Shown here: piece by piece, positions 4,144 through 21,559 of the stretch
How positions within the stretch are numbered: the first letter of the stretch is position 1
Layout: every line of letters begins with the position of its first letter
Origin: an uncultured Acidobacteriota bacterium
Lineage (GTDB): Bacteria; Acidobacteriota; Thermoanaerobaculia; Multivoradales; UBA5704
NCBI GenBank assembly: GCA_963700145.1
Contig: OY969474.1
Span: 2,752,001-2,816,000, forward strand
Direction: 5' to 3'
DNA length: 64,000 nt
Notes under the pieces: generated by a model
Databases searched by the model: none
The model's input: only the letters and a program-made list of their open reading frames with translations
Told to the model about the DNA's origin: nothing
Program-made: the position numbers and the translations under genes

Positions 4144-4320
4144 GTGACACTTCGGCTCTACTCAGCGACTGTCATCCATCGTGACGTGGACGGCCGGGTC
4201 CACGAGCAGAGGTTCCCCATCCGCGCTGCGGACAATGAAAAAGCCTCCGCGCTGGCATTCGACTATGTTCTAGAGGTGCTGAAGCTCAAGGAATTTGAGC
4301 TGCGAGTCGTCGGTTCCTGA
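4144..4320 (+). CDS. Small hypothetical protein (58 aa, absent from ORF track)
   Basis: GTG start; reads MTLRLYSATVIHRDVDGRVHEQRFPIRAADNEKASALAFDYVLEVLKLKEFELRVVGS; fills the gap co-directionally. Confidence 0.5.
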   Translation: MTLRLYSATVIHRDVDGRVHEQRFPIRAADNEKASALAFDYVLEVLKLKEFELRVVGS

Positions 4321-4369
4321 CGCGACGGCTACTTGTTCTCCTCACCGCCAGCCGAGATGGCTAGTGCGA

Positions 4370-5365
4370 TTACCGCACCTTTGTACGACGCGCGATGAGA
4401 ACACTTTTGAGGGGGTCGCCCGACGGGTGCGGGTGGTTCTCCATCACCATTTTGGTTTCTGGCTTCGGGTTGTAGAGATCTCCCGCTCGTGCCAGACTTC
4501 TGAGGTGGGCTTCGTCTCTGGCGATGGCGTAAGTTTCGGTCTCCACGATGGTGGCGAGGTTGACGTATCGGACTTGGTCGCGGGTAAGCTCGATGGTGCG
4601 CATGTCGTCGCCGAGCTCATTGAAGAGTATGCAGGTCTGGGGCGAGAGCGGAAAGGTTCTTACGATCTCCGGGCGAGAGACTCCCCAGGCCCACTCCCTT
4701 TTCGCCGTCGGTATCTCGGGAGGGAACAGAAGCCCAAAGGGGTTATCGCACGTTACAAACGAGGTGTTTCTATCGGCTTTGGCTATAAGCCAACTGGCGC
4801 AGAAGAACCGCTCTCCAAAGTTGTCACCCTGCTTGAGCATCAGTCCCAACCGCGTGTTGTCGCCTACCTCAAGCGCAAACTCCCCGCTGTCTAGGTATTC
4901 GATGAACTCTTCGGGCGGCCCGTCAAAGTTCTTTGCCGCCTCGGGGTCTTCAAGATTCTTGCGCAGTATGACCTCCGCGAAGCCAGTGGTAATTTCGTTT
5001 AGGCTACGTTCAAACGCCGGGGTACGCGCCATGAGCAAGCCGAGGAAGCGGGCGAGGCGAAAGCGATCTTCACGACTGAAGTCAGCTCCGGACTCAAGGG
5101 CATCGAATGCGGGCTTTGCCGCAGCTTCAATCGCGGCGAGCAGACGCTCAACATCGGCGCGCCGCTCACCTGACTCATCGGTAAAGGAATAGTAGTGCCC
5201 TATGACAGCGGTATTTCGCGGTGTCGTTCCGCGAAGCTGTCCTTTGGAACGGTCGAAGACCCACAACCTTCCAGAGCCTGTGAACCGGTCCAAGTAGAAC
5301 TCGGGCAGGTAGTGGTGCCGCTTCGGTGTGGACATACCGCGAATTCCATCAACTTTCTTCTCCAT
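4370..5365 (-). CDS. DUF4238 domain protein
   Basis: N-terminal KRHHYLPEFYL, later FVTCDNP and FPLSPQ motifs characteristic of DUF4238. Confidence 0.85.
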   Translation of the reverse strand: MEKKVDGIRGMSTPKRHHYLPEFYLDRFTGSGRLWVFDRSKGQLRGTTPRNTAVIGHYYSFTDESGERRADVERLLAAIEAAAKPAFDALESGADFSREDRFRLARFLGLLMARTPAFERSLNEITTGFAEVILRKNLEDPEAAKNFDGPPEEFIEYLDSGEFALEVGDNTRLGLMLKQGDNFGERFFCASWLIAKADRNTSFVTCDNPFGLLFPPEIPTAKREWAWGVSRPEIVRTFPLSPQTCILFNELGDDMRTIELTRDQVRYVNLATIVETETYAIARDEAHLRSLARAGDLYNPKPETKMVMENHPHPSGDPLKSVLIARRTKVR

Positions 5366-5536
5366 ACCAGACTATCAGACAATGAAGACGATATGAGTTG
5401 GGGGGTAGCAGGGAGCGTGGAGGTCGGCTCTTCAGACGCTCCCGGCAGAAGCGGCAGGTCCAGGTTTGGAGTGGTGCTGGCTCAGCACCTATAATCTGGG
5501 GGCGAGGTTGACGGAACTAGGATCGGGAGATGGCCG

Positions 5537-7193: not shown

Positions 7194-7221
7194 AAAAACA
7201 AAAGGACCCCGGGTGGGGTCC
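7194..7221 (-). terminator. Rho-independent terminator after SymE gene
   Basis: Minus strand ggacccc-accc-ggggtcc followed by ttttgttttt. Confidence 0.75.
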
Positions 7222-7232
7222 ATGAGAAGGTG

Positions 7233-7817
7233 CTAGCTCTCCGCGACTGCCGAGGCGGGCGGAAGCGTTAGATCCAGTTGATCGGAGGCGGGAGGAAGCC
7301 CTGCTCTGTGCAGCCGCGCCGTCTCCATCCGAGCCCGCTCTCGCCAGAGTTCCCGCTCCAGTTCCTCCTTGGTCAGCTTCGCCACCGCGGCCAGCGCGTC
7401 GATTGCGGCCGCGAGGTAGTCGCCGACGACGCACTCAATCGCGCCGAGGATCTCCGCGGCCAGGTCGGGCGCCAGCTTCTCCTCGAGCAGCCCGTCGTGA
7501 AGCTTCGGCGCCGGCAGCCCTTCGTGGACCTCGTTGAGGGCGGCAACGATCGCCGCGAGCTTCTCCGCGAGCGCACCGAGAACCTGCTGTGCTTCGGGAA
7601 CGGAGTAGCGCGTTCTCGGAGCACGGCCGGTCAGGGTCAGCGAGAGGGTGCCGAGAAGAACGTCGACCGTCATCTTCGCCCCGTTTGCAAACCCCGCTCG
7701 TTCGAGCCAGCGGCCCCGCAGACGAATCATGGGAACGCTGTCCGGCTTCTCGGAGTGAGACCATCCGGGCTCCCGATGGTCGCTGTAGAGGCCAACCGTC
7801 AAAGTCTTTCGCTTCAT
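7233..7817 (-). CDS. symE: SymE-family type I toxin with C-terminal helical extension
   Basis: PMIRLRGRWLERAGFANGAKMTVDV..LSLT is the SymE (AbrB-fold) signature. Confidence 0.8.
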   Translation of the reverse strand: MKRKTLTVGLYSDHREPGWSHSEKPDSVPMIRLRGRWLERAGFANGAKMTVDVLLGTLSLTLTGRAPRTRYSVPEAQQVLGALAEKLAAIVAALNEVHEGLPAPKLHDGLLEEKLAPDLAAEILGAIECVVGDYLAAAIDALAAVAKLTKEELERELWRERARMETARLHRAGLPPASDQLDLTLPPASAVAES

Positions 7818-7939
7818 GCGTGTTTCTCCATGGAAGCCCGGGCCACCGGGCGAATGCCGGCGGCACTTGCCGCGGCGGCCCGGTGTTCCTTCTCTCCTGT
7901 CTGCGGGCGCTGCATCGTCGCGTCCTATCCCGGTCTCCG

Positions 7940-8070
7940 CACCTCCGCTCTAGTAATCCTCGGCAGAGTCATTCCGCCGGGAAAAGTGAAAGCTCTCGCA
8001 CCCGCAAGGTGCGAAGGCGATTGCTCAACTTGGGGGAAGGCGTTAAGGTGCTATCTGAAGATCAGCGTAG
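7940..8070. ncRNA. Putative structured RNA / toxin leader-antisense element, copy 1
   Basis: Near-identical to 12774-12911; GNRA-capped hairpin cgcacccGCAAggtgcg; upstream of symE. Confidence 0.55.
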
Positions 8071-8291
8071 GCGAGGAGATCAAGCAGTCATAGCCGTACA
8101 AATCTGCCGAGAAGGCAGGTTGGGCGGGCGGGCAGACTGCAACGGCCAATGGCCGAGTGGTCCTGAAGAAGCTGTGCGGGTCTTCTTCCGCATAGCTCGA
8201 TAGACACTTACCTATGCGCCATCTTCATTGACACCGACCAAACCAGGTTTCAGGATGCGCGTAGCCGTCTCTTGCCAGATGGGCTGAACTT

Positions 8292-10313
8292 GTGGAGGAC
8301 CTTATGCGCTCACACAGGACGATCTTCCTATTCACGTCTCTCGCGCTGACCTTGTCATCTTTAGCACATGCCGTCGAACCCGCCTCTGGCCATGCGGAAA
8401 TACGGATCAATCACAAAGATGCCATCGTTTATAAGCACCCCACCTATGTCTTCCGATCCTGGACCACTGATTACAAGGAGCTGCCGGCTCGCGTCCTGGC
8501 GACTCCACATCCGTTCACTGTTCGACCGGGAGAAAAGGTCACTATCTATATAGAAGATCGTAACCCGTTCCTCTATTCATACGTATGGACTAGCGCTGAG
8601 GGAATCGCCACTCAGAATGCGACGGCAGCGGCAGTCTTCACGAAGGGGCTGCTCACGCTTATACAGAACCTTGAGCCGGCTTCCGGTTCCAGCGACCTAA
8701 CCCCATACGATCCTTACGGTATTCGGACAGCACGGGGTGCGCAGTTCGTGCTGGCGTCGCTGCACCAAGACTTCGAATTAGACGATGACTTTCCGATCGA
8801 AAGCCCGGGCTCGAGCAAGGAGATTCTCGAGAGAGCTGCTGGAAGGATCAATGCGCTTCAAATAGGTGGAGACCGGACATTCGGCGAGCAGGTCATGGAT
8901 TTTCGCGTTGACGACATCATGGAGCGCGCTATCGAGGCCGTCCGGAGCAAGAATGTCCCCACTCCTGAGAATCCGAGGATCAGAGAAATCCTAAAAGAAG
9001 CGGGTATTCCGAATACCCGAAGCTTTCTCCAAGACTTCAAGGCGCTCGCAGCTAAATTGTATCTCTTCGGTGAACAGACAGAGAAGCTCATCAGTGAAGT
9101 CGAGAGTGGCAACGGTCGCGCCGCTAAGGAAGTGGTGAACGGATGGCAGCTGGAGCGCAATATACCTGACCTCGGCAAGCGCTACGACCTCATGCGAAGC
9201 GCAATGGATGCTCTCGTATCAGAAGTGAATGCAGAGAAGAACACAGAAGAGCTCTCCGAGGAGATCGCTACCAAGATCCGGAGAGCCGACTTCATCAAGC
9301 GTAAGTTGGCAAGACTTCCCGGGATTCTAAATGAGGCCGAGGCACAGCAGCTGCCGGCGCTATGTAGTGAGTGGTCCAAGTTGACCGGCGGGAGTCGCGC
9401 CGCATGCCTGGCTGACCCAACGAAGCTTGTAGGTAAGACGACAATTCAATCGGAGGAGCTTGAACACGAGGACACGGGAGATGTGGAACTGATCGATCTT
9501 CCGGAGCGGCTTGTCCTTACTGGAAGGCGATTCGAGAAGGGAGAAATCAGGGCTCTTGCCGATGAACTTGACCGAGCCCGGGCGGCCAATCGGGTAAGCA
9601 ATAGGATAAGTGCCGATCCCTTTTATATCAGCGCCCAATTTCTGCTGACGCAGGAGGATGAGACGCGCACCACGTTGTCAGAAATGGAGCAATTCGCCAC
9701 GACGATGGCTCTGGTCGACACAGCGATGCCCCTTGCCGAGATCACCTACGACGGCACGTTGATCAAAGGCGGCAAATTGACGATCACACGGGTTAAGGGC
9801 CTCCCGATCGGGTTGCAGAAGCTCTTCCGAAGAGGTGAACAGGTGGAGGCTGTCTACGATCTCGCGTTCAAGCCGTACAGCGCTGTTCAACTCGAAGCGG
9901 GCGTCGCAACGGTATATAGCTTCGTCAAGCAGCACGATTTTGAGCTCACGCCAGAGGGGAGCAACTTCAGGATCATCGATACTGAGAACGAGTACTCCGG
10001 AGTGGAGCTAGGAGCTATGTTGACCATAGTGCCCGCTCGATGGGCCGACTCCGATTTTTATGGACTGTTCCAAGTAGGAGTGAAGCCAAGCGAGAACCTC
10101 GGGTTCTTCGCTGGGGGCGGTATCAAGTTCTCGAATTGGTTCTCATTCGGCATAGGAGCCGCCTTCGAGCAGGTGGAAAGGCTCAAAGCAGGCGTCGACC
10201 CGGACGGAGACGGCTTGATCCCGAGTAGGGACGCGCTCAAGACAGAGAAGCATTTCGAGCCCGGATTCTATATACATCTAACGGCTAGTAAGGAAATCGG
10301 TAAGAAGAACTGA
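8292..10313 (+). CDS. Secreted/outer-membrane hypothetical protein
   Basis: Signal peptide (SLAHA), helical middle, C-terminal alternating beta-strand region. Confidence 0.75.
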   Translation: MEDLMRSHRTIFLFTSLALTLSSLAHAVEPASGHAEIRINHKDAIVYKHPTYVFRSWTTDYKELPARVLATPHPFTVRPGEKVTIYIEDRNPFLYSYVWTSAEGIATQNATAAAVFTKGLLTLIQNLEPASGSSDLTPYDPYGIRTARGAQFVLASLHQDFELDDDFPIESPGSSKEILERAAGRINALQIGGDRTFGEQVMDFRVDDIMERAIEAVRSKNVPTPENPRIREILKEAGIPNTRSFLQDFKALAAKLYLFGEQTEKLISEVESGNGRAAKEVVNGWQLERNIPDLGKRYDLMRSAMDALVSEVNAEKNTEELSEEIATKIRRADFIKRKLARLPGILNEAEAQQLPALCSEWSKLTGGSRAACLADPTKLVGKTTIQSEELEHEDTGDVELIDLPERLVLTGRRFEKGEIRALADELDRARAANRVSNRISADPFYISAQFLLTQEDETRTTLSEMEQFATTMALVDTAMPLAEITYDGTLIKGGKLTITRVKGLPIGLQKLFRRGEQVEAVYDLAFKPYSAVQLEAGVATVYSFVKQHDFELTPEGSNFRIIDTENEYSGVELGAMLTIVPARWADSDFYGLFQVGVKPSENLGFFAGGGIKFSNWFSFGIGAAFEQVERLKAGVDPDGDGLIPSRDALKTEKHFEPGFYIHLTASKEIGKKN

Positions 10314-10345
10314 GCGTGACCGGCAACGCTGTATTGAGGACGAAT

Positions 10346-10371
10346 CACACCCCGCTATCAAGCGGGGTGTG
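10346..10371. terminator. Bidirectional hairpin/terminator, copy 1
   Basis: cacaccccgct-atca-agcggggtgtg; same stem at 15265-15290. Confidence 0.7.
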
Positions 10372-10392
10372 TGAGAATTCTGCAACTGGTCA

Positions 10393-10545
10393 TCATAGAG
10401 ATCCTGGATGTAGAGTGAACTCAGGATTCTTCTCGAACCAGTCGAGGATCTCTCGCATAACGTGTCTCAACTCAGATTCTCTCGTGACCTGCGTCTCCGG
10501 CAGGTTTGTACCGCTTCGACCTCCGGCCCGTTGAAGGTCACTACA
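10393..10545 (-). pseudogene. Orphan C-terminal tail of a serine recombinase
   Basis: Translates to CSDLQRAGGRSGTNLPETQVTRESELRHVMREILDWFEKNPEFTLHPGSL*, matching the recombinase end RTGINLP...LRHVLQEIHDWLRKNP. Confidence 0.8.
10495..10520. repeat. 26-bp direct repeat, putative att site A
   Basis: ctccggcaggtttgtaccgcttcgac; 25/26 identical to 12565-12590. Confidence 0.8.
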
Positions 10546-10556
10546 TAGGGGAGGCC

Positions 10557-12401
10557 ATGTACGCACGAACGATCGTCGTCTTCTTCACAGTCCTGCTGAC
10601 CGCGTGTGCCACCACGACGCGGGGCCGGTCCGTCGTCCTGCGCGGGCAGGTGCTCGATCCGGCGAACGCGCCGGTCGCCGGCGCGATGGTCACGGCCGGA
10701 TCGCGTGCGGCGCGCACGGATGCTCTCGGCGAGTTCCGCCTGGTCGTGCCGCGCGCGGAGCGCATCGCCGCGACCATCATTGCGCCGCGGTTCATCGAGA
10801 CCACGCGGGTGTTCACGTCCGAGAACCTCGCCCGCGGCAAAAACGTCATCGTGATCTGGCCGCGTGCGGCCGCGGTTCCGCTCGACGCCAGCCTCGGCGG
10901 AACGCTGACGTTCCCTGGCGGCACCATCGCCATCCCTCCGGCCGCGCTGGTCGATGCGAACGGTCAGCCGGCGACCGGCAACGTGCGCGTCTCGTTATCG
11001 GCCATCGACGTCTCCGATCCGCGCCAGCTTCGCAGCGCACCCGGTGACTTCACCGCCCGCATGCGCGACGGCTCCACGCAGCGGCTGGAGACATTCGGGA
11101 TATTCGAGGTCTTCGCCGAGGACGCGGCCGGGCGGCGGCTGGACCTCGCCCGGGGCCGCGAGGCGCAGGTCCGGCTGCGCATCCCGCCGCCGCTGCAGCG
11201 CAACGCGCCGGACGTGGTCGGATCCTTCCGTTTCGATCCGGCCGACGGGCGGTGGGTGGAGGAAGGTCGGATGATCCTCGCGCCCGCTGGAGACGCGTTC
11301 GACTTCCCCATCCCGACCTTCGCCGTGAAGTGGAACGCCGATCAGGTCATGGCAACCACGTGCATCAAACTGCAGGTCCTCGACTCCGGCTGCGGCCAGG
11401 CAGCGGCGACGGTGAACGCGCACGTCGAGGCGGGCGGAGTCAATTACACCGGCTACTCCCATGACTACACCGATGGAAGCGGAGAGGCCTGTCTCTCGGT
11501 CAAGAAGAGCGCCGTCGCCGGCGTGACCGTCAACGGCGGCAACGCGCTCAACATCGCCACGCCCGCCACCATCGCCAGCGCGCCGGGCGACTGCAACAAC
11601 CCCGCGCTCTGCCCGCTGGTGGCGACGACGCACCTCGGCGGCGCCGGCTTCGTCGAGCCGCTGAATGCCGACGATCCGTCCCGCTGGACTAAAGCCGACT
11701 GGCAGAACGCCGATCAGCTCTTCGGCACCGCCTGGAAGCCGACCACCAACCACGTCTCTTTCGCGAACGGTGAGCTGACCCTCACCCTCACGGACTACGG
11801 CAACACTCCCGCGGACGTCTGCGCCACGGATCCCGTCGCGAACTGCCACGGCGAGAACTACACGTCCGGCGAGTACCGTACCAACTGCTTCTACGGCTAC
11901 GGCACCTACAAGGCCAAGATCCGCGCCGCGCGCGGGGACGGACTGGTGACGACTTTCTTCACCTACACCGACATCTTCGACGGCACGGCCGGGCCGAACA
12001 ACACCAACTGGCACGACGAGATCGACATCGAGATCCTCGGCAAAACCCCGGCCTCGAGCGGTTGCGCGGGGACGATCGTGCAGTTTAACTACTTCATCAA
12101 AGGCACTCAGGACCCGGAGCCGAAGTGCCTCCTCTTCGACGCGTCGCTGATGGAGCACGAGTACGAGTTCAGGTGGACGCAGACAGAGATCAAATGGTAC
12201 GTCGACGGTGTCCACCAGCACACCGAGTTTCGCCCGTCGCCTACGGCCGATTGGCCGAGCCAGCCCGGGCGGGTCATGGCCAGCGTCTGGGCGGGCGACA
12301 ATACTAACGGGGGTGCTGTCGCTTGGCTGGGCACGTTCAACTATAACGCCGCCGGGATCATCCGCGACGCCGTCTTCTCCGAGATCAGCTACACGCCGTG
12401 A
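10557..12401 (+). CDS. Lipoprotein with carboxypeptidase-regulatory-like domain and C-terminal GH16 glycoside hydrolase
   Basis: RBS ggagg, lipobox LLTAC, catalytic EIDIE motif, YTSGEY/YGYGTY, WYVDG. Confidence 0.88.
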   Translation: MYARTIVVFFTVLLTACATTTRGRSVVLRGQVLDPANAPVAGAMVTAGSRAARTDALGEFRLVVPRAERIAATIIAPRFIETTRVFTSENLARGKNVIVIWPRAAAVPLDASLGGTLTFPGGTIAIPPAALVDANGQPATGNVRVSLSAIDVSDPRQLRSAPGDFTARMRDGSTQRLETFGIFEVFAEDAAGRRLDLARGREAQVRLRIPPPLQRNAPDVVGSFRFDPADGRWVEEGRMILAPAGDAFDFPIPTFAVKWNADQVMATTCIKLQVLDSGCGQAAATVNAHVEAGGVNYTGYSHDYTDGSGEACLSVKKSAVAGVTVNGGNALNIATPATIASAPGDCNNPALCPLVATTHLGGAGFVEPLNADDPSRWTKADWQNADQLFGTAWKPTTNHVSFANGELTLTLTDYGNTPADVCATDPVANCHGENYTSGEYRTNCFYGYGTYKAKIRAARGDGLVTTFFTYTDIFDGTAGPNNTNWHDEIDIEILGKTPASSGCAGTIVQFNYFIKGTQDPEPKCLLFDASLMEHEYEFRWTQTEIKWYVDGVHQHTEFRPSPTADWPSQPGRVMASVWAGDNTNGGAVAWLGTFNYNAAGIIRDAVFSEISYTP

Positions 12402-12564
12402 CGCCCGCCCTGCGGCTACGCTTCATAGACGAACTCCCAGGGAAGCAAGTGGCGGCAATTCTCGGAGTGCATGCACCCAAGCGCCCGCAAGATCGTGCAG
12501 CGCGCGCGAGCCCGACTCGGAGCAGCTCGTCGAGAGATTGAGGATGGTGCAAAGCAAAGGCCGA

Positions 12565-12590
12565 CTCCGGCAGCTTTGTACCGCTTCGAC
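12565..12590. repeat. 26-bp direct repeat, putative att site B
   Basis: ctccggcagctttgtaccgcttcgac; minus strand reads RSGTKLPE like recombinase RTGINLP. Confidence 0.8.
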
Positions 12591-12773
12591 ACCTGATGGG
12601 GCCACGTGCAGGCACCGATGAGAGACGGTGGAGTAAACCGCTGGTGTGCTGGCTAGCAGGTTAGTGGTAGACTAAAGGTAAGCAGCGCCATTGTGCGATC
12701 ACGTCGACGATGGTGTTCCAGTCAAATCCGCGTGGGCGGGCACTACGCCTTTGCGTTCCGCCCCAGGTCTTCC

Positions 12774-12911
12774 CACCTCCGCTCTGGTAATCCTCGGCAG
12801 AGTCATTCCGCCGGGGAACTCACGAAGCTCCCGCACCCGCGAGGATGCGAGGGTGACTGCTCAAGTCGGGGGGAGTGAGACAGTGAAGGTGCTATCTGGA
12901 GATCAGCGTAG
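12774..12911. ncRNA. Putative structured RNA element, copy 2
   Basis: Homologous to 7940-8070; tetraloop GCGA replaces GCAA. Confidence 0.55.
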
Positions 12912-12997
12912 CGCGATCATCTCGCCTGCATAGGCGCAGGAACCTGCCGGAGAGGGACGACCTTCTAGGCCCCATGCAGCTGTGCACATTCTTTGAT

Positions 12998-13026
12998 TTG
13001 ACCGCACGCGCTTAGAGAGTTACCGT
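12998..13026 (+). promoter_or_regulatory. Sigma70-like promoter
   Basis: TTGACC-17 bp-TACCGT upstream of RBS gggagg and ATG 13055. Confidence 0.45.
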
Positions 13027-13054
13027 AGAGCAGCAACTCCGAAAGGGAGGGACT

Positions 13055-13382
13055 ATGACTGCTCCGCTATTGCGCACGGCACGTATCTGTTCGCTTGTTC
13101 TTCCACTGATGTATCCGTTGGCAGGCGCGCCGCTCCAGGCAGACGCCTATGCCTTGCAGGTCGATAGTGGCGGCACTCTCCTCACCAACCTCGAGTACTA
13201 CGCTCGCGAAGAAGCGGACTCGAATGATGTTAGCGTTCACGCGAAGCGCAACCTTAACGGGCAGTCCTACGTGGGGGTCGGGCAAGATCGGCAATAGCAT
13301 GTCCCTGACCGCGCTCTCAAGTGGTGTGCAGCTGAACGGCCTGCCGATTTGGACCGAAGATCACCTGCCACTCGCCCTATAG
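13055..13382 (+). pseudogene. Small secreted protein, probably frameshifted at a G run near 13273
   Basis: Strong RBS and signal peptide; removing one G joins ..GQSYVG to SGKIGNSMSLTALSSGVQLNGLPIW.. ending at the next gene's RBS. Confidence 0.4.
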
Positions 13383-13392
13383 GAGAAGAGCA

Positions 13393-13572
13393 ATGGCTGA
13401 TCAACGAGACGAGAAGAACGATGCGGATGTTAGAAACCTTGACGCAAGTAGTTCTGACGAAGAGACGCGCGAATGCCGAATGCCGTGTCCGGAAGAAGGT
13501 TGCTACCAAAGGTGTGGTAAGAACTGGGGTCATCCGCGTCCGCACACTTGCCCTACGCACGGGGATTTCTAG
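13393..13572 (+). CDS. 59-aa Cys/His-rich peptide with acidic N-terminal half
   Basis: RBS aggaga at 13381; MADQRDEKNDADVRNLDASSSDEETRECRMPCPEEGCYQRCGKNWGHPRPHTCPTHGDF. Confidence 0.6.
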   Translation: MADQRDEKNDADVRNLDASSSDEETRECRMPCPEEGCYQRCGKNWGHPRPHTCPTHGDF

Positions 13573-14056
13573 CGATGACGAAACCTTGAATAAGAGTAAC
13601 GTTAGAGCTGCGGCGCGATAGGTTTCGTGTAGACCTCGTAGAAAAAGGCGCGCAGCCTTGCTCGACGCGTACATCTGCTCCGGCCGGGTGTGGGGGGTTC
13701 TCGCGGCGACCGACTTTTTTTCCTCTGCCCTCGTCGCCGCGGCCTCTTCAACAGTCGCCGTTTTAGGAGGCCAGTATGCCTGAGAATCAACAGAGTGAGG
13801 CGCATCGTGTGACTACGGCTGCAATTCATACACAAGGTTCGGAGGCTGAAGTGACATTTTTGAAGCTTGCGGCGCTAAGCATCCCCTCTGTACGAAGGCC
13901 TTGGAGAATGTGAAATGCGAAAAGGACATAAAATTGGGGCCAAGATCACGTATGTAAGTGCAATGCGACCTGGTGATATCCGATGCGCCCGGTGCATTCA
14001 GCGCAAGGTCTATTGAACTTGGCGATGTCGAAGCGGTTGACCCGGCTTGAGGTGAG

Positions 14057-15133
14057 TTGCTGCGGCAGCGGTACCATCGGCTGATGAAATTCCACCAAGA
14101 CACGATCCGCGACCCAGAAATCGTGGACCTCGAGGGCGCCACCGTGCTGCTACCGGAGGGCTGGAAGCGGGAGGGCGGGTTCGTGTGGATGCCGCAGTTT
14201 TCGATCCAAGCCAACCTGCTCATCAGGGTCTCCGACCCGAACACGGGCGCGGCGATGCAGACGCTGCTCGCCCAACACTTCGTCTGGTCCTGGCAGCCAT
14301 CGGTCACCTCCATGCCGCCCGGCTCGAACTGGCTCGGCTCGGTGATGCTCCCCCCGCCGCGCGAGCCGGCCGAGTGCGTGCACATGGTGTTCATGCCCGG
14401 CCCCCTGCAACACTTGCGTGGCGCGCGGCTCGTGCGGGTCGAGGACCTGCAGCCATATGCCGCGGAGCTGGCGCTCGGCGCCCCCCAGATGAACCTGCAC
14501 GCGACGCGATTGCGTTACGCCTTCGACTGGAACGGGCAGGGATGGGAAGAGGACGTCTATCTCATCGTCGTGCTCTCCCCGCCGGAGGAGGGGTGGTTGG
14601 CGATCTGGCGGTGCGCGGCCTGGTCGGCGCGTGCGCCGATGGATGAGTTGGACGGGATGACTCCCCTGCTCGCGGCGATCGCGCTGTCGGTGCGCACCAC
14701 CTTCGATTGGGCGGCGCTGCTCGCTTACACGCAGCTCGAGTTCCAACTGAATATCAAGAGGCAACAGACCCGCCCGATCATCCGACAACAGCGGGGAGCG
14801 ATCTGGGCGCAGGAGCAGACGCCGTACACGATGTGGGTCCAGCGCCAGGAAGAGATCCGCAAAAAGCACCGCCCGGCGTGGGAGGCGCGGCAACCGGGCC
14901 TCGACCGTGAGCGCATCGTCCTGAGCCGACTCATCGGCGGACTCGAGACGTACATCAACCCGTTCGATTCGGGCCGTGTGCAATTGCCATCGAGCGATTC
15001 CGGTTACTGGATCAGCAAGGAAGGTCAGGTCGTCACCGCAAGCGATGCCGCCTTCGACCCAAGCGCGGGCAGCACGCCAGGGTGGAAGAAAATGATGTTA
15101 GATGTCGGAGCTGCAACGCACTCGCAGCATTAG
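14057..15133 (+). CDS. Hypothetical protein (start uncertain)
   Basis: Long ORF with protein-like composition (LLPEGWKREGG..W), convergent on the recombinase. Confidence 0.7.
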   Translation: MLRQRYHRLMKFHQDTIRDPEIVDLEGATVLLPEGWKREGGFVWMPQFSIQANLLIRVSDPNTGAAMQTLLAQHFVWSWQPSVTSMPPGSNWLGSVMLPPPREPAECVHMVFMPGPLQHLRGARLVRVEDLQPYAAELALGAPQMNLHATRLRYAFDWNGQGWEEDVYLIVVLSPPEEGWLAIWRCAAWSARAPMDELDGMTPLLAAIALSVRTTFDWAALLAYTQLEFQLNIKRQQTRPIIRQQRGAIWAQEQTPYTMWVQRQEEIRKKHRPAWEARQPGLDRERIVLSRLIGGLETYINPFDSGRVQLPSSDSGYWISKEGQVVTASDAAFDPSAGSTPGWKKMMLDVGAATHSQH

Positions 15134-15264
15134 TATGACTAGCCCTGCAGCACGCTTCTCAAGGTGCTTTATTCCTTGGAGTCTGGTGGCAGCTCGCATC
15201 TCCTGTTAGGTTCAGACAGAAGCGAAGGTTACATTCGGGGCTGTTGAGTGGGACCGAGTACAAG

Positions 15265-15290
15265 CACACCCCGCCGTCTGGCGGGGTGTG
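15265..15290. terminator. Hairpin/terminator after recombinase, copy 2
   Basis: cacaccccgcc-gtct-ggcggggtgtg; compensatory C-G versus T-A pair relative to copy 1. Confidence 0.7.
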
Positions 15291-15297
15291 AATCGAT

Positions 15298-16935
15298 CTA
15301 CTGCTGGCGATCTCGGATACTCCGAAGTACACTGGTAGGTACTGTGGGATTCTTCCGAAGCCAGTCATGGATCTCTTGGAGAACGTGTCTCAATCCAGAA
15401 ACAGGATGAGTATTTAGCATCGTACTTGTCGCCGCCGGCAGGTTTATGCCGGTTCGAGAACTGTCCCGACTACGTCCACCTAGTTGCGTTTGGTCGTGCT
15501 TAGACAGTAGGCCAAACGGGAATAGTAGCTCAACCACAACGTTCTTTCGATCCGCGCGCCGGTTCGAGGTGAGCATTTCCAGCAGCTCACGTTTTTCATC
15601 GTCCGTTCCCAGTTCGTGGCTCAGTGAGGCCGTGGAGGCAAGTTCGAGGATTTCGCGCAGGCGAGTTGCCTCTTCCTCAGCATCCACCTCCCTGGCAAGC
15701 TTCTCTTCCAGCTCTCGCTGATCGAGGAGGAGTCGCTTCTTGCGTCCCTCAAAGGCCTCCTTGTCGAGAGTTCCTTCAAGGTAAGCGTCCACTAAGCGGT
15801 CTTGGCGAGTCTGGAGAGCAGCGAGCTGGAGCTTCCACGTCTCCTTCGTCCGCTCCGTACTTTCCTCATGGTGACCGAGGAATGCATCTGCTTCCACCTC
15901 CAAGGCAGCGCGTTCGGTATCGGACAGCCGCAACATGGAATACGCGCTCGTAACCGCGGCCTCGAGCAGCTCCTCCCTCACGCCGGTCATCGGGCAGATC
16001 TTCGTGTGGCAGCGGTAGTAGACATGGCCCTTCTGCAGCTCGCCGATCAGCGCGTAGCCGCACTCGCCGCACCGGAACATTCGGCGGTAGCGGAGGAGAT
16101 TGCGCCCGGTAGTTTTCTGAGACTTCCCGGAGAGAAGTGCCTGCACACGCTTGAAGAGCTGCGTGCTGATGAGCGCTTGATGCACTCCCTTGTAGACCGC
16201 ACCCCCCTTGTGGACGATGAGCCCCATGTAAAAGGGATTGTTGAGCATCGCAGAGAGCCCGTTGCGCGTCACCGGGCCGCCTTGGCGGTTGCGCAATCCC
16301 ATTCGGGCGAGCTCCTCGCACAAGGTGTCGAGGCTGTGGGCGCCGGTGGCGTACAGCTCGAAGGCTCTCCGTACTGTCGAACCTGTTACGGGGCAAATGG
16401 TCTTGACCTTCCCGCGAGGCCCGTTGTTGACGTAGCCGAGGGGTGCTCCCCAGGGGAGCAGTCCCTGGCTCAGCCTCCCGGCAATGCCTTTCTTCACTTC
16501 CTCGCGGAGGTTGCGGATGTAGTCGGTGGCGAAGACTGCCTGCACGTCAGCCAAGAGCCGCTTGCCGCGGGTGCTCAGGTCTAGGTTGTCGCTGGCGAAC
16601 CGGACGCCGAAGCCTTCATCGGCAAGGTCGTTGATGTCCGCCCAGTCGTGATAGTTGCGGCTGGAGCGATCTACCTTGTGCACGATGAAACCTTCGGCCT
16701 CTCCTCTTCGCAGGCGCTTGGCCATGGAAGAGAAGACGGGCCGGCCGCGGACTGCCGCGGTCTCGATCTCGCGAAACCACTCGACGATGGTGAGCCCCTC
16801 ACGTTCTGCGTAGCGAGAAACGACGCTGCGCTGCTCGGCGAAGGAGGCACCCTCCCGTGAGTCTTTCTGGTCCGGGTCCTTTTCGTCATCCTGTTTTGGA
16901 TCCGAGACACGGATGTATGCGAAGAATCGCTTCAT
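15298..16935 (-). CDS. Large serine recombinase (integrase)
   Basis: YIRVS catalytic Ser, VHKVDRSSRN, recombinase domain (PLGY, NPFYMG), zinc ribbon CGECG/YYRCH..C, coiled coil. Confidence 0.95.
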   Translation of the reverse strand: MKRFFAYIRVSDPKQDDEKDPDQKDSREGASFAEQRSVVSRYAEREGLTIVEWFREIETAAVRGRPVFSSMAKRLRRGEAEGFIVHKVDRSSRNYHDWADINDLADEGFGVRFASDNLDLSTRGKRLLADVQAVFATDYIRNLREEVKKGIAGRLSQGLLPWGAPLGYVNNGPRGKVKTICPVTGSTVRRAFELYATGAHSLDTLCEELARMGLRNRQGGPVTRNGLSAMLNNPFYMGLIVHKGGAVYKGVHQALISTQLFKRVQALLSGKSQKTTGRNLLRYRRMFRCGECGYALIGELQKGHVYYRCHTKICPMTGVREELLEAAVTSAYSMLRLSDTERAALEVEADAFLGHHEESTERTKETWKLQLAALQTRQDRLVDAYLEGTLDKEAFEGRKKRLLLDQRELEEKLAREVDAEEEATRLREILELASTASLSHELGTDDEKRELLEMLTSNRRADRKNVVVELLFPFGLLSKHDQTQLGGRSRDSSRTGINLPAATSTMLNTHPVSGLRHVLQEIHDWLRKNPTVPTSVLRSIRDRQQ

Positions 16936-17201
16936 ACGTTCGTGTCGCGGATTTGGCTTGTAAATGATCGACCGTCATCCATGCTACGGGTGCCGTACTC
17001 TCGTGTCAAAGCCGCAAAGCGTTCTCGCTCCTCAGGATCAAAGGCAATGCGGCCGTGCAGACGCACGACGAAGTCTAAGTAGCGCCGCAAGGCGGCGCGT
17101 GCCTCTTCCTGCTCGTCGGGCGTGAGGCCAGGAAAGAGGTCGGTCATTGTGAGTGGCGATGCGTGCATCGCCACAGGGTAGGTTCGCCTTTGATACCGCA
17201 C
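16932..17201 (-). CDS. Small hypothetical protein coupled to recombinase
   Basis: ATGA overlap with recombinase start; LFPGLTPDEQEEARAALRRYL helix; start uncertain. Confidence 0.65.
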   Translation of the reverse strand: MRYQRRTYPVAMHASPLTMTDLFPGLTPDEQEEARAALRRYLDFVVRLHGRIAFDPEERERFAALTREYGTRSMDDGRSFTSQIRDTNV

Positions 17202-17283
17202 AAGACTTCGTTTTCTGCCGGATGCCGGGTTCGGCAGGATGCGGCGTCTTCCGCTCGATCACGGCATCGGTACCCTGTGCTCC

Positions 17284-17898
17284 ATGACGCCACAGTTTCA
17301 ACAAGCAGTGAACTTCCATCGTAATCTTCCTGAGGACTTGTGGTTTGCGCTGGAGGGCTGCGGGATACCGTCCGCGCTCATCCACGCCCGTCTCATCGGG
17401 TGGGACGGAGAGGCAATCACCATCCCGGTCTTCTCGCGCGATCGAAAGGTCGTCGCCTTCGAGTACGCGAGCTTCGATGAGCAGGGCCGGCTCGCCTTGC
17501 TGCCTCAGGAGGGAGATCGCCTCTACCTCTACGGCGAGCCCGTCCTTAACCTCAATCCGCAGGAAGTTGTCCTGACAGAGGGAGTGGTCGAGAGCCTGCT
17601 CCTCTCCGGCCAGGGCTTCAATGCGATCTCGGCGACTGGAGACGGTTTGTCATTCCGGCCCGAGTGGGCGCCGGCACTCCGCAAAGTCCGGGAGTGCTTC
17701 ATCTGCTTCAAGCGCCACGCCGAGAGTATCGGCTCGGCGCTCATTGTCCGCGATCTCGTTCCAGAGGCGCGGATCGTGACGCTCCCGCCCGAGGTCGGTC
17801 ACGGCGGCGGGCTCTACGAGTTCTTCCTCGAACTGCAAGGGACGAAGGCGGACTTCCGGGCGCTCCTCAAACGGGCGGCCGATTCAACCGATGCCTGA
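17284..17898 (+). CDS. TOPRIM/primase-like protein
   Basis: ITIPVF, LYLYG, VVLTEGVVESLLL..G..AIS TOPRIM motif; acidic DxD degenerate. Confidence 0.75.
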   Translation: MTPQFQQAVNFHRNLPEDLWFALEGCGIPSALIHARLIGWDGEAITIPVFSRDRKVVAFEYASFDEQGRLALLPQEGDRLYLYGEPVLNLNPQEVVLTEGVVESLLLSGQGFNAISATGDGLSFRPEWAPALRKVRECFICFKRHAESIGSALIVRDLVPEARIVTLPPEVGHGGGLYEFFLELQGTKADFRALLKRAADSTDA

Positions 17899-19249
17899 CA
17901 ACGCCCCCAAGAGAACCCGGATACGGCCGGCTGTCTCCGCCATCTTGTCCTCCGGCGAGCTCCTCGAGACGGTGTATGACCCCGCCACGCCGGCGACAGG
18001 GTTTGTGGTCTTTGACGGCGCAGCGTGGCGAGTGGAGAAGCGAGTTGAGTTGCCCTCGGGAGTGAGCCTTGTCCCGTACTCGCCGGAGAACAACCTGCTG
18101 ACCCATCGGGTCGTGCTTCTCCCTTCTGCGCCGGAGGACTACGGCTCCGAGGAAGAGCTTCTCCTTGAAGTGCGCAAGTTCATCCACCGCTACGTCGACC
18201 TGGGCGAGCTGTTTGAGGAAGTCGCCGCCGCATACGTTCTCTTCACCTGGATCTACGACGCCTTCAACGAGGTGCCGTACCTGCGCGTGCGCGGCGACTA
18301 CGGCTCCGGCAAGTCCCGCTTTCTCCTCACCGTCGGCTCTCTCTGCTACAAGCCGATCTTCGCTTCGGGCGCCTCGACGGTCTCTCCCATCTTTCGCATC
18401 CTTGATGCGGTCCAAGGCACTCTCGTCATCGACGAAGGCGACTTCCGCGCCTCAGACGAGAAGGCCGACATCGTCAAGATTCTCAATAACGGCAACGCCC
18501 GCGGGTTCCCGGTGCTGCGAAGCGAACAGACACCGTCCAAGGAGTTCAACCCCCGGGCCTTTCACGTCTTCGGCCCCAAACTCATAGCGACTCGCAGCCT
18601 CTTCGACGATCGGGCGCTTGAGAGCCGCTGCCTCTCCGAGGACATGGGGATGCGGCCGCTGCGGAAGGACATCCCGATCAACCTGCCGGAGAGCTTTGAG
18701 GAAGAGGCCCGAACACTCCGCAACAAGCTCCTTCTGTACCGCCTCCAAACCCGCGGAAAGAGCCGAGACCTCACCGCGGCCCTGCCCGCAGGTCTTGAGC
18801 CGCGCCTGAGCCAGATCCTCGTACCACTGCTCTCGACCGTCTCAAGTGAAGAGACGCGAGAACGGCTCCTCTCGCTTGCCCGCCGATCAGGCCAGGCGCT
18901 TTCAGCCGAGCGCGCCATGGCGATCGAGGCCGAGGTGCTCGCGGTCCTGCACGAGCTCCGCGCGGAGGGTCTGCCGCTGTCGGTTTCCGAGATCACCAAG
19001 CGCTTTGCCGATCGCCACGCTGCCGAGTATGAGTACGTCGTGACGCCCCGCTGGATCGGCTCGGTCCTAAGGCGAAAGCTCATGCTCACCCCGCAGAAGC
19101 GCGGCGGCACCTTCGTCATCCCGGCTTCCGAGCACCCCAAACTCGCACGGCTCTTCGAGAAGTACAGCGTGCCTTCGGAGCAGGACATTGGGGACGTTGG
19201 GGATGTCCCACAGGATGACGGCGGCGAGAGCCTAAGCACGGAAACATAA
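17891..19249 (+). CDS. P-loop ATPase/helicase-like replication protein
   Basis: Walker A GDYGSGKS, Walker B LVIDEGD, ALESRC arginine finger, C-terminal winged helix. Confidence 0.8.
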   Translation: MPDNAPKRTRIRPAVSAILSSGELLETVYDPATPATGFVVFDGAAWRVEKRVELPSGVSLVPYSPENNLLTHRVVLLPSAPEDYGSEEELLLEVRKFIHRYVDLGELFEEVAAAYVLFTWIYDAFNEVPYLRVRGDYGSGKSRFLLTVGSLCYKPIFASGASTVSPIFRILDAVQGTLVIDEGDFRASDEKADIVKILNNGNARGFPVLRSEQTPSKEFNPRAFHVFGPKLIATRSLFDDRALESRCLSEDMGMRPLRKDIPINLPESFEEEARTLRNKLLLYRLQTRGKSRDLTAALPAGLEPRLSQILVPLLSTVSSEETRERLLSLARRSGQALSAERAMAIEAEVLAVLHELRAEGLPLSVSEITKRFADRHAAEYEYVVTPRWIGSVLRRKLMLTPQKRGGTFVIPASEHPKLARLFEKYSVPSEQDIGDVGDVPQDDGGESLSTET

Positions 19250-19300
19250 GGCTTCCCGGCCCGCCTGCCCCGTAGAACGTCCCCAACGTCCCCAACGTCC
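19183..19300. repeat. Inverted arrays of 9-bp repeats, putative replication origin iterons
   Basis: (ggggacgtt)x3 imperfect at 19183-19209 and (aacgtcccc)x3 at 19276-19300. Confidence 0.7.
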
Positions 19301-19352
19301 TATCTCCTCCTCCCAAAACCTGCCGACTCCGGCAGCTTTTTACGCCTTGCAT

Positions 19353-19367
19353 TTGACTTCATGTCAA
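19353..19367. promoter_or_regulatory. Palindromic operator/-35 upstream of XRE gene
   Basis: TTGAC-ttcat-GTCAA. Confidence 0.5.
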
Positions 19368-19380
19368 GTAAGTTGTCACG

Positions 19381-19761
19381 GTGGATATGACATTCACACC
19401 ATTACAAAACTATCTCCGTACCCACCGTAGGCGAAATCACCTGTCGCAGGACGAGGTTGCCTTCCTCATGGGGGTCGCGACCGGCAGTCGGGTCACGCGG
19501 CATGAAGGAAGCGACCGGATTCCCACGCTCCAGGTCGCGCTTGGCTACGAGTTGCTCTTTGGCGTGCCCATGCGGGAGCTCTTCACCGGCGAAGTGCACA
19601 AGGTCGAATCCATTATCAGAGAACGCTTACCCGAGCTGATCCGGCGTACCAAGGAAGAGAGCCCGGAAAATGTGCAGAAGCTCTCCTTTCTCCACGGTCT
19701 CGCTGGGCGGCTTGCAAGCCAAAATGAAAAGCATTCACGCAGTGAGGACGTTAGCGCTTGA
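19381..19761 (+). CDS. XRE-family HTH regulator
   Basis: NYLRTHRRRNHLSQDEVAFLMG..VTRHEG..RIPTL. Confidence 0.88.
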   Translation: MDMTFTPLQNYLRTHRRRNHLSQDEVAFLMGVATGSRVTRHEGSDRIPTLQVALGYELLFGVPMRELFTGEVHKVESIIRERLPELIRRTKEESPENVQKLSFLHGLAGRLASQNEKHSRSEDVSA

Positions 19762-20218
19762 CTCCACGACTCCCGGCTTTGCGTTTGCGGCGCTTGAAGG
19801 AAGCGGGCACCTGGTTGACTGGGGGCTGGTGCACATGGCGGTGCAAGACGCCGGGGCATACCGAAGCCGGATCGAGAAGCTCCTGGACCGGGTGAACCCA
19901 CAGGTCCTCGTCGTCGAAGACATGAGTGACTCCCGACGCAGCGGCCGAGCACCCAGGCGCGCGGACATTGCAGAGAAGTGCGCAAGAACCCGCGGCATTG
20001 CGGTAAAGAGAGTCAGTCGCGCCGACGTCAAGCAGATGTTTGCCGCGTCAGGAACGACCAAATGGGAGATCGCAGCTGCGGTCTCACGCTTCTTTCCTGA
20101 GCTTTCGCCGAGCCTCCCGAAGAAGCGGCGAATCTGGGAGACCGAGGACCGGCGCATGGCAATCTTCAGCGCAGCATCGTTTGCCCTCACGTTCCTGCGA
20201 ACACGAGAAGTGGAGTAG
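19724..20218 (+). CDS. RuvC/RNase H-fold protein
   Basis: LALD..GFAFAALE, PQVLVVED, TKWEIA; last acidic residue appears lost. Confidence 0.65.
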   Translation: MKSIHAVRTLALDSTTPGFAFAALEGSGHLVDWGLVHMAVQDAGAYRSRIEKLLDRVNPQVLVVEDMSDSRRSGRAPRRADIAEKCARTRGIAVKRVSRADVKQMFAASGTTKWEIAAAVSRFFPELSPSLPKKRRIWETEDRRMAIFSAASFALTFLRTREVE

Positions 20219-20359
20219 AGGTAGGTAGCGTACGGTGGATTTGACTAGGTGTCCTTACGGAGAGGGCACACACGCTTTCCCGCGAAGAACGGGGGAGCTT
20301 TGGCGTGCGTCAGAAAAGGACGCCTTGGAAGGAGAGGGGCAGTCCATCACGATGGGCGG

Positions 20360-21559
20360 ATGCACTCCGAGGACCGCATCACGTACTTCGCCCGCACCAA
20401 CCACCGCAACACGCGGAGGCTCTTTGGCATTCGCAGGCGCGATCGGCTCATGCACCTCTACACCATCGGCCGAACCGGCACGGGAAAGTCCACGCTTCTG
20501 AAGACCCTCATCCTCCAGGATCTTGAGGCCGGCGAGGGCCTGGCGCTCTTTGATCCGCACGGGGACCTGGTGGAGGAGGTGGTGGAGCTCGTGCCCACCG
20601 CTCGGCGGAAGGACCTTCTCTACCTCAACGTCCCGGACAGCCGCTGCCGCTTCTCGTTCAATCCCTTCGCCGGCGTTCCTGCCGGCAAGCGAGCGCTCGC
20701 GGCCGCCGGCATGGTCGAGGTCTTTAAGAAGCTCTGGCCGGACGACTGGGGACCGCGGCTCGAACACCTGCTCCGAAACACCGTCTTCACGCTCCTCGAG
20801 ACGCCGGGAGCCAGCCTTGCCGATATCCCGCGTCTCCTTGCCGACCGGGAGTACCGCCGAGAGGTGGTCGCCGGCGTCACCAACCAAGAGGTCCGCGCCT
20901 TCTGGCGCGACGAGTACGAGCGCTACAGTCCTGGCATGCGGGGAGTGGTGGTGGCGCCCCTGCAGAACAAGGTCGGAGCGTTCCTGACCGACCCGCGGCT
21001 GCGGGAAATCCTCGGGGCCGAGGAGTCGAGCTTCGATCTACGCGAGATCATGGATGAGGGCAAGATACTGCTGGTCAATCTCGCCCGCGGGCGGATCGGC
21101 GAGGGGCCGGCGGCGCTCCTGGGATCGCTCCTCGTCTCCTGCCTGAGCCTTGCGGCCTTCGGCAGAGAAGAGCAGCCGCAGGAAGAGCGCCGCGACTTCT
21201 ACCTTTACCTCGACGAGTTCCACACCTTCGCCACTCTGACCCTGGCGACCATGCTCTCCGAGCTGCGGAAGTACCGGGTGGGACTTGTGCTAGCCCACCA
21301 GTACCTCTCCCAGCTTGAGACGGAGGTCCGGGATGCGGTCTTCGGGAACGTGGGGACGTTCGTCAGCTTCCGGGTGGGAGCGCTCGACGCGCCGACGATC
21401 GCCCGGGAGCTCGCGCCGACGTTTGAGTCTGAGGACCTGATCTCCCTGCCTAACTACCGCATCTACCTGCGGCTAATGATCCGAGGAGAGCCGAGCAAGC
21501 CATTCAGCGCCACGACCACCCACGAGAAGCTGTTGACGCCGGCGGCGGCGCCCGGTTAG
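20360..21559 (+). CDS. VirD4/TraD/HerA-like ATPase (T4SS DNA-binding domain protein)
   Basis: GRTGTGKS, DPHGDL, LYLDEFH, ELRKYRVGLVLAHQYLSQL. Confidence 0.92.
   Translation: MHSEDRITYFARTNHRNTRRLFGIRRRDRLMHLYTIGRTGTGKSTLLKTLILQDLEAGEGLALFDPHGDLVEEVVELVPTARRKDLLYLNVPDSRCRFSFNPFAGVPAGKRALAAAGMVEVFKKLWPDDWGPRLEHLLRNTVFTLLETPGASLADIPRLLADREYRREVVAGVTNQEVRAFWRDEYERYSPGMRGVVVAPLQNKVGAFLTDPRLREILGAEESSFDLREIMDEGKILLVNLARGRIGEGPAALLGSLLVSCLSLAAFGREEQPQEERRDFYLYLDEFHTFATLTLATMLSELRKYRVGLVLAHQYLSQLETEVRDAVFGNVGTFVSFRVGALDAPTIARELAPTFESEDLISLPNYRIYLRLMIRGEPSKPFSATTTHEKLLTPAAAPG

Follow-up and report, generated by a model that had tools for sequence, protein, structure and literature searches.

We analyzed a 64,000-nucleotide stretch of the genome of an uncultured soil bacterium of the Acidobacteriota (contig OY969474.1, positions 2,752,001 to 2,816,000; hereafter the window), in which a gene for a large serine recombinase (LSR) is followed by an array of cargo modules separated by copies of the end of that same gene. 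We consider it probable that these modules, which lack a recombinase of their own, have accreted at the 3′ end of the LSR gene in the manner of a staphylococcal cassette chromosome (SCC), each bringing a replacement for the C-terminal tail of the enzyme. This reading builds on what is directly observed, that is, the repeats themselves, their recurrence in related loci, the variable content between them, and the identity of the repeat with a recombinase half-site. An earlier, sequence-only reading of the window had seen in it an integron-like cassette array, and we state below where our results agree with it and where they do not.

The repeat is a degenerate 23-mer (CCGGCAGGTTTRTRCCGSTTCGA) that matches the window three times, always on the plus strand, at sites A, B, and C (see the table), against 0.00 matches expected from 100 shuffles; it is found nowhere else in the 5,455,767-bp genome, where the reversed control gave 0. 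The sequence-only reading was thus right that related sites recur in one orientation, and equally that one of them lies within the recombinase 3′ end, since the half-site at C consists of LSR codons 493 to 499 and overlaps the coding sequence. When up to six mismatches to the family consensus are allowed, the 64-kb window holds five positions, namely, A, B, C, an inverted copy at 8088 to 8110 (plus strand, five mismatches), and a degenerate copy, site D (six mismatches), while none of 30 Markov control windows held an arm match at five or fewer mismatches. The LSR genes of loci L017 and L097, whose proteins are 78% and 56% like the window LSR, respectively, contain the 23-mer of site A without any change, and in a comparison of C-termini the left arm of site A resembles the LSR subfamily of relatives P0045, P0052, and P0055.

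The recombinase itself carries the Pfam domains Resolvase (PF00239, 1.8e-20), Recombinase (PF07508, 7.4e-15), and Zn_ribbon_recom (PF13408, 3.2e-8), all above their cut-offs. Its residues R9, V10, and S11 are invariant among 37 aligned relatives, and we take S11 to be the catalytic nucleophile, as is known for the family. A search for relatives scored 8,000 candidates, 2,844 of them at E ≤ 0.001; among the C-termini of the best 60 of these 2,844, those down to about 50% identity share the pattern ..G[AG]RSRDSxRSGTNLP..LGPRHxIxEIYDWLxxHP, and the site motif occurs twice in tandem inside the LSR frame of P0019 and P0027. Behind site A lies a second copy of such a tail, in a minus-strand open reading frame (ORF; 10393 to 10566) that scores 1.8e-10 against a hidden Markov model (HMM) of the family C-termini. 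The spare in-frame tail described by the sequence-only reading is therefore real as a frame, whereas its stop had been placed nine residues too early; the frame reads RSGTNLPETQVTRESELRHVMREILDWFEKNPEFTLHPGSL up to its actual stop, which follows KNPEFTLHPGSL. The claim that the same stem follows both tails stands: the GC hairpins behind tails A and C are 83% alike, differ by one compensatory pair (T-A to C-G), and are matched in folding by 0 of 200 shuffles. Neither has a T-run, and neither appears in the list produced by a terminator scan. A search for small proteins made of the tail alone (query, LSR residues 476 to 545; search restricted to shorter proteins) yielded 10 candidates, none of them at E ≤ 0.001.

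Table. Coordinates of the recombinase gene, the sites, and the associated features (positions in the window)
Feature	Position	Strand	Basis or remark
LSR, 545 aa	15298..16935	-	Pfam domains
Tail C, present LSR C-terminus	15298..15434	-	Tail HMM, E 5.9e-21
GC hairpin behind tail C	15262..15290		Folding, -24.3 kcal/mol
Site C	15435..15480	-	23-mer arm 15435-15457 (R-T-G-I-N-L-P) and L arm 15458-15480 (GGRSRDSS)
Cargo gene, 358 aa, convergent on LSR	14057..15133	+	ORF; no family identified
Inverted arm closing unit C	12928..12950	+	15/23 to consensus, read from sequence; a weaker match than that at 8088
RNA-like element, copy 2 (partial)	12763..12916		Repeat comparison
Site B	12535..12589	-	23-mer 12567-12589 and tail remnant of ~17 codons, RSGTKLPESAFALHHPQS, beyond which homology stops
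Possible sigma-70 region-4 gene fragment (tentative)	12398..12541	+	Weak BLASTP match
Glycoside hydrolase family 16 (GH16) gene, probable lipoprotein	10558..12401	+	Pfam Glyco_hydro_16, 3e-32
Site A	10497..10541	-	23-mer 10497-10519 and left arm encoding LCSDLQRAGG
Orphan tail A	10393..10496	-	Open frame and tail HMM
GC hairpin behind tail A	10343..10371		Folding, -23.3 kcal/mol
Cargo gene, 673 aa	8292..10313	+	ORF; no family found
Inverted arm closing unit A	8088..8110	+	18/23 to consensus
RNA-like element, copy 1, upstream of SymE-like gene	7929..8074		Repeat comparison
SymE-like gene, distal flank of array	7233..7817	-	Pfam SymE_toxin PF08845, 3.1e-9, 37.2 bits (cut-off 29)
Site D	19329..19351	-	Arm-like; doubles as terminator hairpin of a 452-aa gene
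Conserved island backbone adjoining LSR	16932..21559		86-97% nucleotide identity to the conspecific genome G401

Two units of the array keep one order, that is, site, tail, hairpin, convergent gene, and RNA-like element, just as the sequence-only reading had described them. Unit C runs from 15457 to its inverted arm, which is followed by copy 2 of the RNA-like element, and unit A runs from 10519 to its inverted arm, which is followed by copy 1 and the SymE-like gene. Between the two units lie site B with its broken tail, the possible sigma fragment, and the GH16 lipoprotein gene. The 358-aa gene of unit C has no Pfam or PADLOC match, and none of the four ORFs of the window's own modules is matched by PADLOC.

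A second island puts this array in a comparative perspective. The conspecific genome G401, whose core is about 95% identical in nucleotide sequence to that of the present genome (G000), carries on contig C52 an island that aligns with the window at 15424 to 21516 (84%), at 7215 to 7997, the region of the SymE-like gene (87%), and at 1416 to 4313 (89%). Tail A, site A, and about 20 nucleotides of its left arm form a block common to both islands (42222 to 42019 in G401, 76%). Sites are found in G401 at 34309 and 34363, both inside the LSR gene, and at 36340, 39048, and 42039. Between the LSR gene and the outer tail, G401 has three modules, which are unrelated to the two of the window; number and content thus vary between homologous elements, as an array of exchangeable cargo would lead one to expect. 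With the LSR as the tblastn query, the modules of both islands match only residues from 476 onward.

The G401 island also reveals where such an element joins the chromosome. It is 42.3 kb long (C52, 15198 to 57509; loci L177, L097, and L176) and interrupts a gene of the metallo-β-lactamase (MBL) fold that is intact in G000: the island flanks match G000 at about 5.33 Mb with 95% and 93 to 94% identity, and G000 is uninterrupted between 5327113 and 5327114 (contig C1, locus L182), inside the MBL-fold gene. Both island junctions have a 2-bp TC in common, and the island ends are inverted arms, TC being followed by CGCGAACGGTCCCTTTCTGCC at one end and preceded by CCGGCAGAAAGGTACCGCAACAA at the other. 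Compared with the empty site of G000, these junctions are attachment sites of the LSR type, with a TC crossover flanked by inverted half-sites. The two end arms agree with each other at 14/21 positions and, aligned without gaps and in register, with the in-gene 23-mer at 11/21 and 16/23; the core common to all of them, read from the junction alignment, is N6-CGGTAC-N4-CTGCC. Judged by this alignment, the in-gene 23-mer is a real recombinase half-site abutting a central dinucleotide, and the recombinase would be the LSR. Since no other recombinase was found in the G401 island (Pfam; ORFs of at least 100 aa), the LSR probably integrates the island via its ends. Integration of the island went through the end arms and left an intact LSR gene. 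Near one end (56068 to 56947), it carries a 71%-identical paralogue of the interrupted MBL-fold gene region, including an attB-like stretch.

Orphan tails are not peculiar to these two islands. We collected 160 loci of LSR relatives (41 to 79% identity) from metagenomes and species genomes; 156 of these have a complete LSR 3′ end, and each was searched with its own last 60 residues (E < 1e-4). Orphan tails recur in 24 of the 106 loci that have at least 3 kb of downstream sequence, with one orphan in 17 loci, two in 6, and three in 1. All 32 orphans lie downstream of the LSR on the same strand and none lies upstream; apart from them, extra tail copies are limited to duplicates, in-gene or adjacent, in L050 and L051. 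Orphans are spaced at a median of 2,016 nucleotides (range, 107 to 6,305), no LSR body lies between the LSR and the orphans in any of the 24 arrays, and in all 14 arrays inspected the orphans start at the conserved motif of the LSR and keep its stop position. The breaks thus fall at the site and not at random places, which was a further expectation of the sequence-only reading. A second LSR body is present in 7 of the 156 loci and, among the 24 arrays, only in L134, where it is upstream and on the opposite strand. The hosts of these records include Verrucomicrobiota, Blastocatellia, Terriglobia, Hydrogenedentota, Saprospiraceae, and Rhizobiales; one that has been cultured, Mesorhizobium alhagi CCNWXJ12-2 (L145), has a single orphan 1.1 kb downstream of its LSR.

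In the close family, units read in the LSR sense show a common order, that is, an L arm (about 22 nucleotides, GGRSRDSS), the 23-mer arm, the tail, its stop, the GC hairpin, cargo, and an inverted arm; beyond it lies the next L arm or, alternatively, the RNA-like element together with the SymE-like gene. Cargo length per unit is 0 to 3 kb, with cargo-free units in L016, L020, and L096, and all seven hairpins folded behind tails have z scores between -2.9 and -5.7. Inverted arms close units at 8088 of the window and in L016, L020, L021 (twice), and L096. L021 equals an L020-like locus plus one unit; the duplicated stretch, over which the two alignments overlap, is 106 nucleotides long, begins with the L arm, and takes in the arm and the initial 60 nucleotides of the tail. 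Clade-wide, a blastn-short search found inverted arms downstream in 5/128 loci versus upstream in 5/130, by a method that misses arms detected with a position matrix, and a repeat search in L143, L110, and L145 found only palindromes at or in orphans. We claim the inverted arm for the close family only.

The cargo of these arrays is diverse. Of 163 array ORFs, 91 run against the LSR direction and 72 with it. Related cargo occupies different array positions in different phyla: module 2 of L101 resembles module 0 of L111 (59% at the amino acid level, with a conserved stretch behind the gene; the corresponding LSRs are 55% alike), and module 1 of L174 is 54% alike to module 3 of G401. A PADLOC scan of 140 ORFs (E ≤ 1e-5; ORF sets extending 3.5 kb past the last orphan) gave at least one match in 17 of the 24 arrays, including PifA, PD-T4-6, DRT with SIR2, GajB, HamB with a caspase, PDC families, and a type II methylase; these names denote families, and their function is predicted.

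Within the LSR gene, body and tail do not follow the same pattern of identity. Compared with G401 in 100-nucleotide windows, the island backbone is 86 to 97% identical, the LSR body 50 to 72%, and the stretch from the site through the tail 73 to 81%. At the protein level, the G401 enzyme (P0027) is 59% identical to the window LSR in the body and 60% in the tail, and P0003 to P0026 are 75 to 83% identical in the body and 24 to 48% in the tail. On these comparisons, the tail and the body of the LSR differ in history, in line with the earlier proposal that each event swaps the C-terminus of the enzyme. The LSR ORF on its own (15485 to 16935) is a divergent allele, its two breaks coinciding with the start codon and the in-gene site.

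We propose the following course of events for the accretion that we favor. The LSR would bind the half-site N6-CGGTAC-N4-CTGCC, one copy of which forms the codons R-S/T-G-T/I-N-L-P of its own gene. A module would begin at this arm and comprise about 45 replacement codons (the tail), the GC hairpin, and 0 to 3 kb of cargo, with the inverted arm last in the close family. On entering the LSR-proximal site, it would supply the tail of the enzyme and push the older tail outward as an orphan, the crossover most likely taking place at the dinucleotide 5′ of the 23-mer. We infer all three elements of this scheme, that is, the LSR as mover of the modules, their point of entry, and the place of the crossover. 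In the window, unit C would then consist of the current tail and the 358-aa gene, site B would be a broken unit with the GH16 gene, and unit A, which is common to the sister island and has a left arm from another LSR subfamily, would be the oldest. Entry next to the LSR fits the comparison with G401 because the outer unit is common to both islands and the inner ones are not. The array in this genome is probably no longer active.

Several observations weigh against this reading. The majority of the loci (82/106) have no orphan tail, and none of the 60 C-termini inspected belongs to an LSR without a tail, as an empty landing pad would provide. No excised circles or site-to-site deletion joints were found in four soil runs, which offered low-depth Logan contigs only; run X1 agrees with the assembly, one contig spanning site B, and run X2 contains a relative of about 92% identity, covered only to the right of about 15506. 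The dinucleotide 5′ of the arm is TC at C, TG at B, and GG at A, and in G401 it is TC at both in-gene sites and AG, AC, and GG at the others, so that, if crossover occurs there, recombination among the present sites would be impossible. The format of an L arm and then the arm is common to all sites, so stacking requires recombination of like with like, and canonical serine integrases are not known to recombine like with like without a directionality factor. An inverted arm and the arm that comes after it are separated by 24, about 20, or about 11 nucleotides, not by 2, and no single model that we tried fits. The tandem site in the G401 LSR (L097, 11446 to 11522) has a unit of 54 nucleotides, and that of P0019 a unit of another length. 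Finally, part of the window array is decay, because the left arm of site A belongs to another LSR subfamily and the tail of site B is truncated; the alternative of decayed related elements, which the sequence-only reading had set beside its proposal, holds in part, since the left arm of site A is left over from a second recombinase gene. Two other arrangements were rejected. An inversion switch, in which two arms form inverted full sites, has fitting central dinucleotides in only 2 of 6 cases, and of other crossovers, at the start of the L arm or at AG within CTGCCGG-AG-nCGGCAG, neither suits all sites; the register of the island end arms also argues against a crossover at this AG.

Could the modules instead be what is left of whole LSR-bearing elements or islands that, by cointegrate formation or tandem integration, recombined with each other at the in-gene site and later lost their extra recombinase bodies, so that the modules are former island flanks? 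The left arm of site A, which encodes LCSDLQRAGG as in the P0045/P0052/P0055 subfamily, would be explained in this way, as would an LSR body that is a divergent allele in a conserved backbone with its break at the site. In L027, L034, L050, L051, L158, and genome G301, a second LSR gene does stand a short way downstream on the same strand, and behind unit C there is another, partial copy of the RNA-like element, as though a whole 3′ flank had been duplicated. Yet no remnant of an LSR body is found between the LSR and its orphans in the 24 arrays (32 modules) or in the five modules of the window and G401, every orphan begins at the site, which random deletion would not bring about, and spacings of 0.1 to 3 kb are too small for an LSR-bearing element. 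On balance, we regard such relics as unlikely.

Both remaining explanations are far less probable. If, as in phage Mx8 or the viruses of the Sulfolobus spindle-shaped virus (SSV) type, the in-gene site were the attP of the island, integration would split the gene, and successive islands would leave their tails at one pad. Integrase-internal attachment sites that alter the 3′ end are indeed known from Mx8 (PMC6070905) and SSV-type elements (PMC7253208). The G401 island, in contrast, joins the chromosome at its ends and not at the in-gene site, and the array travels within the island to another chromosomal place; moreover, orphans would be predicted upstream, at the far end, whereas all were found downstream of an intact LSR. 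We consider this explanation very unlikely, and the least probable of all is that no site-specific event took place, homologous or illegitimate recombination having copied the 3′ end and hairpin, or the repeats having been kept only as terminator or regulatory hairpins. The arm does overlap the hairpin CTGCCGG-AG-nCGGCAG, site D is a plausible terminator, and the tandem site of the G401 LSR, like the similar one of P0019, does not look like a simple site-specific product. Duplication or hairpin function alone, however, sits poorly with a 23-mer that is identical in LSR genes only 56 to 78% alike as proteins and that agrees with the arms of a junction whose overlap is 2 bp, and with unrelated cargo between copies and strictly polar orphans.

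Among known systems, the SCC offers the nearest counterpart to the accretion that we propose. SCC and SCCmec elements target rlmH (orfX), with CcrAB or CcrC as their enzymes. In composite SCC islands, Ccr recombinases mobilize tandem recombinase-less cassettes rich in defense genes (PMC11470126). The loci described here resemble these islands in their LSR, in the stacking of modules in one orientation at a fixed site in a gene 3′ end, and in that each module has a copy of the gene end, many modules being recombinase-less and carrying anti-phage defense genes. Direct repeats of the target 3′ end bound the units, and recombinase-less units stand in tandem with a recombinase-bearing one. The differences are that the landing pad is the recombinase's own gene in a conjugative-type island and not rlmH, that the copied end comprises about 45 codons plus a hairpin versus about 15 to 20 bp in SCC, and that the hosts are Acidobacteriota and other phyla; the mobility of the modules is here presumed.

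[quoted passage not shown] There, recombinase-less elements are likewise bounded by attachment repeats and form tandem arrays at one target; their targets are host genes (fda and ssrA), however, and CIMEs have been described mostly for tyrosine recombinases. The Mx8 (PMC6070905) and SSV-type "suicidal" (PMC7253208) integrases share with our LSR a site inside the recombinase ORF and a C-terminus changed by recombination, but those are tyrosine recombinases that act in the element's own integration, with no array of cargo modules, and the LSR gene of G401 was neither split nor altered by the integration of its island. With integrons, the array has in common a recombinase gene beside a one-way array of recombinase-less units, with entry presumably next to the recombinase. 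It is nevertheless not an integron, for which enzyme class, sites, and gene orientation all fail: the enzyme is a serine and not a tyrosine (IntI-type) recombinase, neither an attC nor a common promoter is present, the repeats being coding tails, the site lies within coding sequence, the median unit is 2 kb, and cargo lies on both strands. In its strict sense, the term "integron-like" of the sequence-only reading does not hold, as the genes on the two strands have their own signals; SCC-type or CIME accretion is closer. A literature search with supplements outside its scope found no description of arrays at the end of an LSR's own gene, and neither did passages of PMC10083194.

Beyond accretion as such, these loci possibly represent, though we give this less than even weight, a serine-recombinase gene-capture platform, in which the LSR 3′ end is the landing pad and modules, many of them for anti-phage defense, complete its frame with their own tails. 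Uptake of cargo would then be coupled to the C-terminus of the enzyme, and perhaps to its activity or directionality, in what we only tentatively call an independently arisen functional analogue of the integron. The same reserve applies to the range of the clade in which such a platform might operate, namely, Acidobacteriota, Verrucomicrobiota, Alphaproteobacteria, Hydrogenedentota, Bacteroidota, and others. If the LSR moves the modules, it would provide a second, independent route to ordered stores of accessory genes beside a recombinase, many of which look like defense genes, and each insertion would rewrite the end of the enzyme that made it. Natural sets of LSRs and sites that recombine like with like might in that case exist and be of use to genome engineers, and orphan tails would offer an easy way of locating cargo hot spots in uncultured phyla by sequence. 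To this question, the window contributes two sister islands along with an unoccupied target site, and these together fix the half-site.

Some features of the array deserve mention in their own right. The RNA-like element is about 150 nucleotides long; its two copies in the window are 81% alike, and a third is found in L176 (3150 to 3330). The element stands immediately behind the inverted arm, upstream of the SymE-like gene; it is conserved in G401 and follows the arm in L016 as well. No Rfam family matches it at the gathering or E-value threshold, and its covariation is weak (4/42 pairs, from three sequences only); it may be a 5′ untranslated region or a small RNA. The SymE-like gene is distal in G401 as well and has tblastx matches behind the LSR in L019, L023, and L096. 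The sequence-only reading had assigned to this toxin a role in stabilizing the array; SymE is indeed a conserved distal neighbor, whereas nothing indicates stabilization. The GH16 gene has an ATG at 10558 and an LTAC lipobox, both read from the sequence, and the possible sigma fragment matches an extracytoplasmic function (ECF) sigma gene at 3324 to 3908 weakly in BLASTP (E 0.011). Site D shares 18/18 nucleotides with site B, is identical (23/23) to a copy at position 30432 of G401 contig C52, and scored as terminator-like in the terminator scan. As an element boundary it was ruled out, given that synteny crosses it in 8 of 11 family loci.

Two of the related loci show further peculiarities. 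In L143 (11500 to 16700), three modules in a row each pair a small LexA-like DNA-binding protein with one of 300 to 415 aa, the pairs being paralogous and one of the larger proteins matching PADLOC PDC-S54, and the perfect palindrome TTGCCGAATTCGGCAA stands immediately before each orphan tail. In L183 (G301, contig C44), two LSR genes (2308 to 3873 and 8854 to 10308), each about 40% identical to the query, share a strand at a distance of 5 kb, with a tail-like piece displaced behind the second, an arrangement that looks like tandem recombinase-bearing units.

The LSR gene of the window sits in an ICE-like island, whose backbone next to the LSR holds a TraG/TrwB-like gene (436 aa) and ORFs of 89, 219, 452 (P-loop), 126 (helix-turn-helix), and 182 aa, the first of these ORFs (16932 to 17201) being a candidate directionality factor. 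In this genome the island lies beside a tRNA-Ala gene (28697 to 28772) together with other elements. Its right end may be marked by a weak arm near tRNA-Ala (15/23, read from the sequence); a left end was sought, and no end was recognized on that side, where a Mutator-family transposase and a P4-type tyrosine integrase lie. Because of these two genes at its left, the 31.8-kb insert beside tRNA-Ala is composite. The transposase occupies the start of the window (3 to 1277), and the integrase (L179, 5928 to 7217, that is, window -2072 to -783) is accompanied by a UPF0175/DUF3368 gene pair. Two TraG/TrwB-like coupling-protein genes are present (20249 to 21559 and 25200 to 28631), the second fused to a C-terminal HTH_17 domain, and parts of them (21076 to 21315 and 27017 to 27256) are 69% alike.

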